Origin: a virus
Lineage: Duplodnaviria > Heunggongvirae > Uroviricota > Caudoviricetes
IMG/VR virus record: IMGVR_UViG_2663762886_000006
Length of the DNA: 7,528 bases
Reading direction: 5' to 3' (one strand)
Shown here: in pieces, positions 1,278 through 7,528 of the stretch
Layout: the number at the start of each line of letters is the position of its first letter
Position numbering within the stretch: the stretch's first letter is position 1
The notes under the pieces: generated by a model
The model's database searches: none
What the model was told of the DNA's origin: nothing
Seen by the model: only the letters and a program-made list of their open reading frames with translations
Program-made: the position numbers and the translations under genes

Positions 1278-4200
1278 GTGCTGGACAGTGAGGGGAATAC
1301 CAACATCTCCGGCGTCACGGTGGTGTTCCGGGCAGGTGAGCAGGAGCAGTCACCGCCGGAGGGATTTGAATCCTCCGGCTCCGAGACGGTGCTGGGTACG
1401 GAAGTGAAATATGACACGCCGATCACCCGGACCATCACGTCGGCAAACATTGACCGACTGCGTTTTACCTTCGGTGTACAGGCACTGGTGGAAACCACCT
1501 CAAAGGGAGACAGGAATCCGTCTGAAGTTCGCCTGCTGGTTCAGATACAGCGTAACGGTGGCTGGGTGACGGAAAAAGACATCACCATTAAGGGCAAAAC
1601 CACCTCGCAGTATCTGGCCTCGGTGGTGGTGGATAACCTGCCGCCGCGCCCGTTTAATATCCGGATGCGCAGAATGACGCCGGACAGCACCACAGACCAG
1701 CTGCAGAACAAAACGCTCTGGTCGTCATACACCGAAATCATCGATGTGAAACAGTGCTACCCGAACACGGCACTGGTCGGCGTACAGGTGGATTCGGAGC
1801 AGTTCGGCAGCCAGCAGGTGAGCCGTAATTATCATCTTCGCGGGCGCATTCTGCAGGTGCCGTCGAACTATAATCCGCAGACGCGGCAATACAGCGGTAT
1901 CTGGGACGGAACGTTAAAACCGGCATACAGCAACAACATGGCCTGGTGTCTGTGGGATATGCTGACCCATCCGCGCTATGGCATGGGGAAACGTCTTGGT
2001 GCGGCAGATGTGGATAAATGGGCGCTGTATGTCATCGGCCAGTACTGTGACCAGTCGGTGCCGGACGGCTTTGGCAGCACGGAGCCGCGCATCACCTGTA
2101 ATGCCTGGCTGACCACACAGCGCAAGGCGTGGGATGTGCTCAGTGATTTCTGCTCGGCGATGCGCTGTATGCCGGTATGGAACGGGCAGACGCTGACGTT
2201 CGTGCAGGACCGACAGTCGGATAAGGTGTGGGCCTATAACCGCAGTAATGTGGTGATGCCGGATGATGGCGCGCCGTTCCGCTACAGTTTCAGCGCCCTG
2301 AAAGACCGCCATAATGCCGTTGAGGTGAACTGGATTGACCCGGATAACGGCTGGGAGACGGCGACAGAGCTTGTGGAGGATACGCAGGCCATTGTCCGTT
2401 ACGGTCGTAACGTCACGAAGATGGATGCTTTTGGCTGTACCAGCCGGGGGCAGGCACACCGCGCCGGGCTGTGGCTGATTAAAACAGAACTGCTGGAAAC
2501 GCAGACCGTGGACTTCAGCGTGGGCGCAGAAGGGCTTCGCCATGTGCCGGGCGATGTCATTGAAATCTGTGATGATGACTATGCGGGTATCAGCATCGGC
2601 GGGCGCGTGCTGGCGGTAAACAGCCAGACCCGGACGCTGACGCTCGACCGTGAAATCACGCTGCCATCCTCCGGCACCACGCTGATAAGCCTGGTTGACG
2701 GGCAGGGGAATCCGGTCAGCGTGGAGGTCCAGTCCGTCACCGACGGCGTGAAGGTAAAAGTGAGCCGTGTTCCTGACGGTGTTGCTGAATACAGCGTGTG
2801 GGGGCTGAAGCTGCCGACGTTGCGCCAGCGCCTGTTCCGCTGTGTGAGTATCCGTGAGAACGATGACGGCACGTATGCCATCACTGCCGTGCAGCATGTA
2901 CCGGAAAAAGAAGCCATCGTGGATAACGGGGCGCACTTTGACGGCGACCAGAGCGGCACGGTGAATGGTGTCACGCCGCCAGCGGTGCAGCACCTGACTG
3001 CCGAAGTCACCGCAGACAGCGGGGAATATCAGGTGCTGGCGCGCTGGGACACGCCGAAGGTGGTGAAGGGCGTGAGCTTTATGCTTCGCCTGACCGTGGC
3101 AGCGGATGACGGCAGTGAGCGGCTGGTCAGCACGGCCCGGACGACGGAAACCACTTACCGCTTCACACAACTGGCGCTGGGGAACTACAGGCTGACAGTC
3201 CGGGCAGTAAATGCGTGGGGGCAGCAGGGCGATCCGGCGTCGGTATCGTTCCGGATTGCCGCACCGGCAGCGCTGTCGCGGATTGAGCTGACGCCGGGCT
3301 ATTTTCAGATAACCGCCACGCCGCATCTTGCGGTTTATGATCCGACGGTACAGTTTGAGTTCTGGTTCTCGGAAAAGCGGATTGCGGATATCAGGCAGGT
3401 TGAAACCACAGCACGCTATCTTGGCACGGCGCTGTACTGGATAGCCGCCAGTATCAATATCAAACCGGGCCATGATTATTACTTTTATATCCGCAGTGTG
3501 AACACCGTTGGCAAATCGGCATTCGTGGAGGCTGTTGGTCAGCCGAGTGATGATGCATCCGGTTATCTGGATTTTTTCAAAGGCGAGATAGGGAAAACCC
3601 ATCTGGCTCAGGAGCTGTGGACGCAGATTGATAACGGTCAGCTTGCGCCTGACCTGGCTGAAATCAGGACGTCCATTACGGATGTCAGCAATGAAATCAC
3701 GCAGACCGTCAATAAGAAACTGGAAGACCAGAGTGCGGCAATTCAGCAGATACAGAAGGTTCAGGTTGATACAAATAATAACCTGAACAGCATGTGGGCT
3801 GTGAAGCTGCAGCAGATGCAGGACGGACGCCTTTATATCGCGGGTATTGGTGCCGGTATTGAGAACACCCCTGACGGCATGCAGAGTCAGGTGCTGCTGG
3901 CGGCGGACAGGATTGCGATGGTTAATCCTGCGAATGGCAACACAAAACCGATGTTTGTTGGTCAGGGCGATCAGATATTCATGAACGACGTGTTCCTGAA
4001 ACGCCTGACGGCCCCCACCATTACCAGCGGTGGAAATCCATCGGCATTTTCCCTGACTCCGGACGGAAAGCTGACCGCTAAAAATGCGGATATCAGTGGC
4101 AGTGTGAATGCGAACGCCGGGACGCTCAACAATGTCACGGTAAATGAAAACTGTACGATTAAGGGCATGCTGGAGGCGACTCAGGTCAGAGGTGACTTCG

Positions 4201-4622
4201 TTAAAGCTGTATCCAAATCATTTCCGAAACAGGCTGGTACGTGGGGTAACACGGAAACACCAAACGGGACGGTTACAGTCACCATAAGCGATGATCATAA
4301 CTTTGACCGCCAGATTATTATTCCGCCCATTATTTTTAACGGTATAGCGTATGACGATCCGGGGAGCGGAAATAACCCAGGAGGCACGCGATACACGGGT
4401 TATGGTTTTGAAGTTCGCAAAAACGGCGTATTAATCGCATCCAGAGAAACTAAAGGTGCCATTCCCGGTAGTTACAGTGCAGTTATTGATATGCCTAGTG
4501 GTGGTGGTAGCGTCACTCTGGAGTTTAAGATTTTCCAGAAAGGCAATCAGGGGGCAGGCAATATCACCGACTGTACGGTGATTGTGACCAAAAAAGCGGC
4601 TTCCGGCATCAGTATTCGTTGA
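1278..4622 (+). CDS. J: Host specificity / tail tip protein J, 5'-truncated (begins at the equivalent of codon 52), complete to the TGA stop; conserved N-terminal and FN3-like middle regions, non-lambda C-terminal receptor-binding region
   Basis: The 1114-codon open frame starts immediately after the n at 1277. Its first ~1.1 kb repeats 160-1276 at ~98-99% identity. The middle region matches lambda J from memory (e.g. [67 protein letters not shown]). The C-terminus (...GISIR) differs from lambda (...GISVV). The GTG at 1278 is not a real start; it aligns to Val52 of fragment A. Confidence 0.9.
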
Positions 4623-4644
4623 AATATTTATAACCCCAATAAAT

Positions 4645-4668
4645 GGCGTCAGGAATGACGCCTTTTTT
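4645..4668 (+). terminator. Rho-independent terminator downstream of J
   Basis: Perfect 7-bp stem GGCGTCA (4645-4651) / TGACGCC (4656-4662) with a GGAA loop, followed by TTTTTT (4663-4668), 23 nt after the J stop codon. Confidence 0.75.
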
Positions 4669-4681
4669 ATTGCAGAAAAGC

Positions 4682-4687
4682 GAGAGG
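4682..4687 (+). promoter_or_regulatory. Shine-Dalgarno-like GAGAGG, 5 nt upstream of the ATG at 4693
   Basis: Purine-rich GAGAGG with 5-nt spacing to the ATG; position is appropriate for the downstream gene start. Confidence 0.5.
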
Positions 4688-4692
4688 TAATT

Positions 4693-4699
4693 ATGCGTA
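4693..4699 (+). CDS. First 7 nt (ATG CGT A) of the gene downstream of J, truncated by nn at 4700-4701; possibly lom-like (outer membrane protein) by position and first two codons only
   Basis: ATG preceded by an SD and a terminator. In lambda the gene after J is lom, which I recall beginning ATGCGTAAT (Met-Arg-Asn). Only two codons are visible, so the identity is weak inference. Confidence 0.3.
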
Positions 4700-4701
4700 N
4701 N

Positions 4702-6295
4702 TCAGGTGCTGGCGCGCTGGGACACGCCGAAGGTGGTGAAGGGGGTGAGCTTTATGCTTCGCCTGACCGTGGCAGCGGATGACGGCAGTGAGCGGCTGGT
4801 CAGCACGGCCCGGACGACGGAAACCACATACCGCTTCACGCAACTGGCGCTGGGACGGTACACGCTGACAGTCCGGGCGGTAAATGCCTGGGGACAGCAG
4901 GGCGATCCGGCGTCGGTATCGTTCAGGATTGCCGCACCGGTAGCACCGTCGCGGATTGAGCTGACGCCGGGCTATTTTCAGATAACTGCCACGCCGCATC
5001 TTGCGGTTTATGATCCGACGGTACAGTTTGAGTTCTGGTTCTCGGAAAAGCGGATTGCGGATATCAGGCAGGTTGAAACCACAGCACGCTATCTTGGCAC
5101 GGCGCTGTACTGGATAGCCGCCAGTATCAATATCAAACCGGGCCATGATTATTACTTTTATATCCGCAGTGTGAACACCGTTGGCAAATCGGCATTCGTG
5201 GAGGCTGTTGGTCAGCCGAGTGATGATGCATCCGGTTATCTGGATTTTTTCAAAGGCGAGATAGGGAAAACCCATCTGGCTCAGGAGCTGTGGACGCAGA
5301 TTGATAACGGTCAGCTTGCGCCTGACCTGGCTGAAATCAGGACGTCCATTACGGATGTCAGCAATGAAATCACGCAGACCGTCAATAAGAAACTGGAAGA
5401 CCAGAGTGCGGCAATTCAGCAGATACAGAAGGTTCAGGTTGATACAAATAATAACCTGAACAGCATGTGGGCTGTGAAGCTGCAGCAGATGCAGGACGGA
5501 CGCCTTTATATCGCGGGTATTGGTGCCGGTATTGAGAACACCCCTGACGGCATGCAGAGTCAGGTGCTGCTGGCGGCGGACAGGATTGCGATGGTTAATC
5601 CTGCGAATGGCAACACAAAACCGATGTTTGTTGGTCAGGGCGATCAGATATTCATGAACGACGTGTTCCTGAAACGCCTGACGGCCCCCACCATTACCAG
5701 CGGTGGAAATCCATCGGCATTTTCCCTGACTCCGGACGGAAAGCTGACCGCTAAAAATGCGGATATCAGTGGCAGTGTGAATGCGAACGCCGGGACGCTC
5801 AACAATGTCACGGTAAATGAAAACTGTACGATTAAGGGCATGCTGGAGGCGACTCAGGTCAGAGGTGACTTCGTTAAAGCTGTATCCAAATCATTTCCGA
5901 AACAGGCTGGTACGTGGGGTAACACGGAAACACCAAACGGGACGGTTACAGTCACCATAAGCGATGATCATAACTTTGACCGCCAGATTATTATTCCGCC
6001 CATTATTTTTAACGGTATAGCGTATGACGATCCGGGGAGCGGAAATAACCCAGGAGGCACGCGATACACGGGTTATGGTTTTGAAGTTCGCAAAAACGGC
6101 GTATTAATCGCATCCAGAGAAACTAAAGGTGCCATTCCCGGTAGTTACAGTGCAGTTATTGATATGCCTAGTGGTGGTGGTAGCGTCACTCTGGAGTTTA
6201 AGATTTTCCAGAAAGGCAATCAGGGGGCAGGCAATATCACCGACTGTACGGTGATTGTGACCAAAAAAGCGGCTTCCGGCATCAGTATTCGTTGA
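4702..6295 (+). CDS. J: Host specificity protein J, C-terminal fragment (about 531 codons, codon phase starts at 4703), second copy of the J 3' end with stop
   Basis: By eye, identical to 3029-4622 from about 5000 onward; the 5' ~300 nt carries about ten substitutions relative to fragment B and instead matches fragment D. Same TGA stop context (...[10 protein letters not shown]). Confidence 0.88.
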
Positions 6296-6317
6296 AATAT
6301 TTATAACCCCAATAAAT

Positions 6318-6341
6318 GGCGTCAGGAATGACGCCTTTTTT
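6318..6341 (+). terminator. Rho-independent terminator, second copy
   Basis: Identical hairpin GGCGTCA-GGAA-TGACGCC plus TTTTTT; same offset (+1673) as the rest of the B/C repeat. Confidence 0.75.
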
Positions 6342-6354
6342 ATTGCAGAAAAGC

Positions 6355-6360
6355 GAGAGG
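6355..6360 (+). promoter_or_regulatory. Shine-Dalgarno-like GAGAGG, second copy, 5 nt upstream of the ATG at 6366
   Basis: Same sequence and spacing as 4682-4687. Confidence 0.5.
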
Positions 6361-6365
6361 TAATT

Positions 6366-6372
6366 ATGCGTA
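6366..6372 (+). CDS. First 7 nt (ATGCGTA) of the downstream gene, second copy, truncated by the N run
   Basis: Identical to 4693-4699 and cut at the same nucleotide. Confidence 0.3.
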
Positions 6373-6390
6373 NNNNNNNNNNNNNNNNNN
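6373..6390. other. Assembly gap (18 N); two further ambiguous junctions lie at 1277 (n) and 4700-4701 (nn)
   Basis: Runs of n in the sequence; the flanking sequence is non-collinear (J restarts upstream on the right-hand side of each junction). Confidence 0.95.
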
Positions 6391-7528
6391 CAGCACGGCC
6401 CGGACGACGGAAACCACATACCGCTTCACGCAACTGGCGCTGGGACGGTACACGCTGACAGTCCGGGCGGTAAATGCCTGGGGACAGCAGGGCGATCCGG
6501 CGTCGGTATCGTTCAGGATTGCCGCACCGGTAGCACCGTCGCGGATTGAGCTGACGCCGGGCTATTTTCAGATAACTGCCACGCCGCATCTTGCGGTTTA
6601 TGATCCGACGGTACAGTTTGAGTTCTGGTTCTCGGAAACGCGGATTACCGATATCAGGCAGGTTGAAACCACAGCCCGCTACCTTGGCGCGGGGCTGTAC
6701 TGGATAGCCGCCAGTATCAATATCAAACCGGGCCATGATTATTACTTTTATATCCGCAGTGTGAACACCGTTGGCAAATCGGCATTCGTGGAGGCCGTCG
6801 GTCGGGCGAGCGATGATGCGGAAGGTTACCTGGATTTTTTCAAAGGCAAGATAACCGAATCCCATCTCGGTAAAGAGCTGCTGGAAAAAGTTGATCTGAC
6901 GGAGGATAACGCCAGCAGACTGGATGAGTTTTCGAAAGAGTGGAAGGACGCTAACGATAAATGGAATGCGATGTGGGGCGTCAAAATTGAGCAGACCAAA
7001 GACGGCAAACATTATGTCGCGGGTATTGGCCTCAGCATGGAGGACACGGAGGAAGGCAAGCTGAGCCAGTTTCTGGTTGCCGCCAATCGTATCGCGTTTA
7101 TTGACCCGGCAAACGGGAATGAAACGCCGATGTTTGTGGCGCAGGGCAACCAGATATTCATGAACGACGTGTTCCTGAAGCGCCTGACAGCCCCCGCCAT
7201 TACCAGCGGTGGCAGTCCTCCGGTATTTTCCCTGACATCAGACGGAAAGCTGACCGCTAAAAATGCGGATATCAGTGGTAGTGTGAATGCGAACTCAGGA
7301 ACGCTCAACAATGTCACGATTAACCAGAACTGTACGATTAAGGGCATGCTGGAGGCGACCCAGGTCAGAGGGGATTTCGTTAAAGCTGTATCAAAAGCCT
7401 TCCCGAAAAAAGTCGGTACGTGGGGTAACACGGAAACACCAGACGGTACGGTTACAGTCACCATCAGCGATGATCATAACTTTGACCGCCAGATTATTAT
7501 TCCGCCCATTATTTTTAACGGTATAGCG
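6391..7528 (+). CDS. J: Host specificity protein J, internal/C-terminal fragment of a third, mosaic allele (codon phase starts at 6392; truncated at both ends by the N run and the window edge)
   Basis: My own translation from 6392 is open to 7528: [46 protein letters not shown]...[117 protein letters not shown]...[53 protein letters not shown]. The central part matches lambda J from memory. This frame is not in the supplied ORF track. Confidence 0.85.

Follow-up and report, generated by a model that had tools for sequence, protein, structure and literature searches.

Fragment D, the last piece of this stretch (6391-7528), is very probably a contig-sized piece of gene J, in the classical h434 form known from phage 434, from a lambdoid prophage, and its product is predicted to bind OmpC rather than LamB. 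The allele is ordinary, widespread and already known, and D is not a new recombinant. A first-pass annotation of the same DNA had described D as a mosaic allele. It is true that D joins a lambda-type module to a non-lambda tail, but there is nothing peculiar to D in that combination: it is the canonical h434 arrangement, and D is collinear with the J gene of phage 434 and with closed genomes at 96-99%.

When analyzing the similarities among the fragments, it is important to consider how the window (by which we mean the whole stretch of 7,528 nt) is put together. It consists of pieces of the lambdoid tail-tip gene J, all on the plus strand: fragment A (1-1276), fragment B (1278-4699), fragment C (4702-6372), and fragment D, an internal piece of J that corresponds to residues 669-1045 of lambda gpJ. 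D is a single open frame of 379 codons, and both peptides quoted for it in the first-pass annotation are present. Runs of N at 1277, 4700-4701 and 6373-6390 separate the fragments, and the last of them, the 18 Ns between C and D, is a scaffold gap and no biological junction. B breaks off 7 nt into lom, C does so at the same base, and D is cut by the N run on its left and by the end of the window on its right. Each fragment end overlaps some other fragment exactly: the last 106 nt of A match B, the first 491 nt of B match A, the last 1,385 nt are identical between B and C, the first 248 nt of D match C, and the last 63 nt of D match B and C. The window is a series of J repeat contigs joined by Ns, and it looks like an artifact of scaffolding in a strain that has several lambdoid prophages rather than like a tandem array. 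Because the ends of these repeat contigs overlap exactly, no biological meaning attaches to the fragment order, and terminal stretches that match exactly weigh little; neither the placement of D nor its identity with C amounts to independent biological evidence. Fragments A and B overlap over 1,117 nt (160-1276 and 1278-2394) with 98.6% identity, and all 16 mismatches are found within 651-1170; therefore the source genome has at least two distinct J 5′ halves.

The same kind of scaffold is found elsewhere. Similar J strings joined by single Ns occur in the IMG/VR records IMGVR_UViG_2700989365_000006 (L010/L012) and IMGVR_UViG_2693429679_000007 (L013/L014), both derived from isolates, and in those two contig sets 100%-identical pieces of D run to 7081 and to 7374. 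The exact 200-nt pattern shared by D and C was matched in 7 IMG/VR stretches, none of which extends D past 7528 at 100%. The C-N18-D junction itself had no match in IMG/VR. One D-like IMG/VR copy ends within a base of its contig end, at the same position at which the window stops.

Two other features of the window concern its gene content. The 77-nt J-lom intergenic stretches of B (4623-4699) and C (6296-6372) are identical, each with a GC-rich, terminator-like hairpin and the T run behind it (ggcgtcaggaatgacgcctttttt), then GAGAGG as the ribosome-binding site, and finally the start codon (ATG) of lom. On the minus strand, two ORFs over D (6104-7012, 302 aa; 7012-7464, 150 aa) were considered as genes and rejected, as the opposite strand holds a coding frame with strong support and the first ORF spans the N gap. 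There is also a long antisense ORF at 1914-3602 (minus strand, 562 aa); most likely none of the three is coding, each being a by-product of the J frame.

The domain content of D was assigned from profiles and from the solved structure of the lambda protein. Four Pfam families are found in the order Ig_J (PF24421), Ig_J_second (PF24489), Phage_Tail_Tip (PF09327) and Ig_GpJ_C (PF12421), all above the gathering score, and phmmer matches D to residues 669-1043 of gpJ in PDB 8iyk in one stretch (E=2.2e-218), with the first residue of D aligned to lambda residue 669. By domain order and by collinearity with the solved gpJ alike, the sequence assigns D to the lambda-like tip attachment protein J (gpJ) family. 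Using the domain names and ranges of the lambda gpJ structure paper (PMC11101478), which places the shaft at residues 809-840 and 841-861, D includes the tail of FNIII-1 (6395-6529, from Pfam), FNIII-2 (6533-6841, the Pfam Ig_J_second match, lambda 716-818), the alpha-helical shaft (6812-6970, lambda 809-861), and, from 7308 to 7528, the start of a 434-type specificity region. The Pfam Ig_GpJ_C match begins at 7388. The specificity region is represented in the window by no more than its first ~73 codons; the other ~92 codons of the receptor-binding domain fall past the window end.

The comparison of D with B, C and lambda has a clear block structure, and it is here that most of the coordinates of the first-pass annotation can be revised. 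D is exactly identical to C over 6391-6638 (248 nt; C 4801-5048), a stretch that covers a variable FNIII-1/FNIII-2 patch, with differences of 4-16% per 50-nt window in B, lambda and 434. The annotation had extended this identity to 6646, but the first mismatch is at 6639. The substitutions that it had spread over 6645-6795 are present, but they amount to 7 mismatches with C confined to 6639-6693, and there are none over 6694-6795. This last segment is a conserved linker of 102 nt, identical in D, C, B, lambda, 434 and X14-3, that encodes the end of FNIII-2 and constitutes the left crossover zone. The next block, 6796-7150 (355 nt), is the short, lambda/434-type central module (lambda aa ~803-921): it is only 64% identical to B and C, with an 84-nt gap by which D is shorter, but 96% identical to lambda J and to 434, and 99% to X14-3. 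Thus, a lambda-type module shorter by 84 nt had been correctly recognized, although its right edge is at 7150 and not at 7126. The identity to B/C from 7127, proposed to be about 92%, is 90.3% when counted from that position; the divergence runs to 7150, and over 7152-7528 the identity is 91.0%. The change in the D-to-B/C repeat offset from +1590 before the block to +1506 after it was confirmed by alignment. So was the presence of a non-lambda C-terminal region: from about 7308 the identity of D to lambda falls to 39-70%, while D there is 100% identical to phage 434 and 86-100% per 50-nt window (~90% overall) to B and C.

A maximum chi-square analysis on informative sites gives values of 126.9 for D versus C and lambda and 116.4 for D versus C and 434, neither of which was reached in any of 2000 permutations, with breaks between 6688 and 6796 and at 7295-7308. 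Of the two motifs near which breakpoints had been proposed, the conserved 15-residue linker (codons at 7151-7195) does mark the right crossover zone, but YLDFFKG (codons at 6827-6847) is a conserved patch that lies within the diverged block, ~30 nt from its left edge, and the left zone is the 6694-6795 linker at the end of FNIII-2. Moreover, the diverged module 6796-7150 corresponds to the shaft and the upper beta-prism central straight fiber, which are outside the receptor-binding region. The swap of receptor specificity is a separate junction at 7296-7308 (lambda aa ~970-974), and this lambda-to-434 switch comes shortly after the start of what Maddamsetti et al. (PMC6646904) call the "specificity region" (960-1132).

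Within the conserved 15-residue linker, the F codon at D 7157-7159, C 5651-5653 and B 3978-3980 corresponds to F924 of lambda J, which a 2026 paper (PMC13043305) identifies as the core of the peptide from J that activates HepS, an abortive-infection (Abi) nuclease encoded by a prophage. B, C and D all keep F, the HepS-triggering state, where Gifsy phages have I (PMC13043305).

When compared with phage 434 instead of with its neighbors in the window, D looks unremarkable. Over all of its 1,138 nt it is collinear, with no indel, with phage 434 J (96.4%), Lambda h434 imm21 (96.6%), mEp460_ev081 (98.5%) and the gpJ of E. coli X14-3 (99.3%). From 6691 on, D is 96-100% identical to 434 per 50-nt window with no gaps, with the exception of dips to 90-92% at 6957-7006 and 7057-7106 and of one 5-nt window at a gap edge, and over 7307-7528 the identity is 100%. 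D therefore shows a hallmark of the h434 allele, a short lambda-type shaft and fiber module joined to a 434-type specificity region, indel-free with respect to 434 J. Of 5,426 complete E. coli genomes, 1,236 cover at least 80% of the 733 nt that include module and tail (6796-7528), and the top matches listed reach 99.5% over the full length. The closed-genome matches of D lie in an I-J-lom-stf gene context, and the nearest full-length relatives (X14-3, mEp460_ev081 and 434) share one 11-residue C-terminal ending. Replacing lambda J with the 434 fiber gene redirects binding from LamB to OmpC (PMC3509688; PMC11101478). Since D follows 434 and not lambda from lambda codon ~972, we predict by homology to 434 J that it would use OmpC instead of LamB.

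How much of D could have a different origin? The explanation that fares best after the h434 reading restricts the anomaly to the 5′ 248 nt (6391-6638), which would be non-ancestral, due either to gene conversion with a C-type copy, between co-resident prophages, or to a collapse in the assembly graph, the rest being plain 434-type. There D equals C exactly, while 3 sites separate it from X14-3, and its divergence from 434 is 4-12% in 50-nt windows. On the other hand, the same 5′ patch is joined at 100% to the unique interior of D in two other drafts (L010 and L014), so that it may be an allele of the lineage, although those two drafts may also share the same assembler behavior. We regard this explanation as possible but doubtful.

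Another possibility is that D is a recent, strain-specific recombinant, in which a lambda-like phage contributed the central module to a resident B/C-type J. The identity with C over the 5′ patch, a 434-type tail common to D and B/C, and the several J copies in the same assembly would all fit such an event. But the same architecture, with the same junctions, is found in phage 434 and in about 1,200 closed E. coli genomes, and identical D segments are present in other draft genomes. Phage 434 was isolated in the 1950s. In addition, the tail of D is 100% identical to 434 and only ~91% identical to B and C, hence it did not come from B/C. A recent origin in this strain is very improbable.

We give just as little credit to the possibility that D is an assembly chimera, in which reads from two prophage J genes were stitched together across short identical stretches. 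The state of the scaffold invites the suspicion, with its N-joined repeat contigs whose ends all overlap another fragment exactly (for D, the 248 nt shared with C and the 63 nt shared with B/C) and the similar strings in other IMG/VR scaffolds. Fragment C adds to it: C is exactly D on its 5′ side and exactly B on its 3′ side, at 15 and then 170 informative sites with no exceptions, and switches from one to the other within 4988-5048, a shared stretch of 61 nt. C is either a real third allele or a chimeric assembly path through those 61 nt; compared with its best closed-genome match, LD93-1 (97.8%), its mismatches are spread along its whole length. However, closed genomes (99.3-99.5%) and phage 434 are collinear with D throughout its interior, across both module junctions, and a chimera would not be expected to match a widespread natural allele so closely. 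Finally, we give no credence at all to an absence of block structure with D diverging uniformly from B/C, which is refuted by a per-50-nt identity that spans from 100% down to 43%, by the 84-nt gap, and by the 0 of 2000 permutations, so that the block structure and the length difference proposed by the first-pass annotation are upheld.

Thus D is best taken as an h434-type J fragment, and it can be placed in the larger population of J alleles. In an alignment of nine full-length J alleles, from which the segment identities were tabulated (the J of the Stx2c phage was left out), the short shaft is found in lambda, 434, X14-3, mEp460, mEp460_ev081 and D, and the long shaft in phage 21, phi458, Lambda_ev087, B and C. 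The lambda-type tail is found in lambda, the 434-type tail in 434, X14-3, mEp460, mEp460_ev081, phi458, B, C and D, and the 21-type tail in phage 21 and Lambda_ev087. We then counted the combinations using junction-spanning queries, two of which are artificial chimeras, against the 5,426 complete E. coli genomes, with a cutoff of at least 80% coverage. The short shaft occurs with the 434-type tail in 1,236 genomes and with the 21-type tail in 1,391, and the long shaft occurs with the 434-type tail in 1,179 genomes and with the 21-type tail in 1,601. The type of the tail is distributed independently of the type of the shaft, and the modules re-assort freely. The combination of a long shaft with a lambda-type tail was found in 0 of these 5,426 genomes. 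The lambda-type receptor-binding tail was matched best in laboratory strains, namely DE3 lysogens and a K-12 derivative.

All four of these shaft and tail combinations being common, the modular recombination that the first-pass annotation had proposed holds for J in general; the module that differs between D and B/C is, however, the shaft with the upper beta-prism and not part of the receptor-binding region where the annotation had placed it. Recombination between the J body and the specificity region has already been published: the J body and residues 960-1132 give trees that conflict with each other, which was read as frequent recombination (Maddamsetti 2018, PMC6646904).

By the same standard, B and C are as mosaic as D, with a phage-21-type long shaft on a 434-type tail. 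The long shaft module, the counterpart of the short module of D, is at 3533-3971 in B and is identical in C at 5206-5644 (both on the plus strand). Its insertion of 28 aa (B 3633-3716; C 5306-5389) falls within the upper helix of the shaft and follows lambda residue ~835. No solved PDB structure covers the insertion, and PDB matches to the long shaft only flank it. A single-chain AlphaFold2 model of the B-type region has a mean pLDDT of 44.8 and is unusable as a fold; pLDDT 70-85 is reached in it only by one long helix that runs across the insertion. Hydrophobic residues recur in the insertion at a spacing of 3-4 residues. Its length of 28 residues is that of four heptads. One could speculate that the shaft dimorphism has a function of its own, either tuning the upward relay of receptor binding or preventing mixed trimers between the J proteins of co-resident prophages whose J bodies are near-identical; we consider this unlikely. 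The window does hold short-shaft and long-shaft alleles with the same type of tail. A limited literature search found no relevant paper on variation of shaft length in J, which is no evidence of novelty.

We propose the following explanation for these observations. D encodes the distal part of the trimeric central tail fiber, including the end of FNIII-1, all of FNIII-2, a short lambda-type three-helix shaft, the beta-prism straight fiber, and the first part of the C-terminal Ig-like receptor-binding domain. The J family is built from segments: FNIII patches, a shaft in two forms (short as in lambda and 434, or long as in phage 21, with 28 residues more), and a specificity region for which three or more types exist (lambda, 434 and 21 among them). 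These segments would be exchanged by homologous recombination at the conserved linkers, between lambdoid phages that are co-resident or superinfecting, and D would appear as a patchwork with respect to B/C and to lambda because of that re-assortment. The tail segment would set the choice of receptor, and the shaft segment would form a structural unit of its own within the trimeric fiber, with the difference in shaft length expected to affect the structure of that fiber. The block structure, the collinearity with 434 and with closed genomes, the assignment of domains, the conserved linkers and the coexistence of the different combinations are observations, while the mechanism of recombination, the use of OmpC and the structural effect of shaft length are inferred.

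As a discovery, D matters little, as the allele, the receptor switch, and the recombination between J body and specificity region were already on record. For annotation, D can be labeled as a 434-type J fragment with a predicted OmpC-binding tail. Readers of this record should be cautious, since in a scaffold of paralogous J contigs neither adjacency nor exact identity between fragments is reliable. The population counts, for their part, give a compact picture of the free re-assortment of shaft and tail of J in E. coli prophages.

Amongst known systems, the closest to D is the J of phage 434 (CPT_434_21, OL657226), the h434 host-range determinant that is also present in Lambda h434 imm21 (OM418627), which agrees with D in its short shaft module and in the type of its specificity region. 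D differs from it by ~4% substitutions, which cluster in the FNIII patch 6391-6540, where the sequence of D is that of C, and by being incomplete at both ends. Lambda gpJ (NP_040600; 8IYK, 8XCI, 8XCJ, 8XCK) has the same domain order, and is 91-96% identical per segment from FNIII-2 through the alpha-helical shaft and the beta-prism fiber to about 7300; from lambda codon ~972, D falls to 39-70% with indels, and lambda binds LamB where the 434 type binds OmpC. The J proteins of phage 21 and phi458 belong to the same gene family, with the same domain order, and are the alleles that B and C resemble. Like B and C, phi458 has the 434-type tail in common with D, but the J of phage 21 and that of phi458 carry the long shaft module, 64% identical to that of D and with 28 extra residues, and the specificity region of phage 21 J is of a third type, with 59% identity to that of 434.
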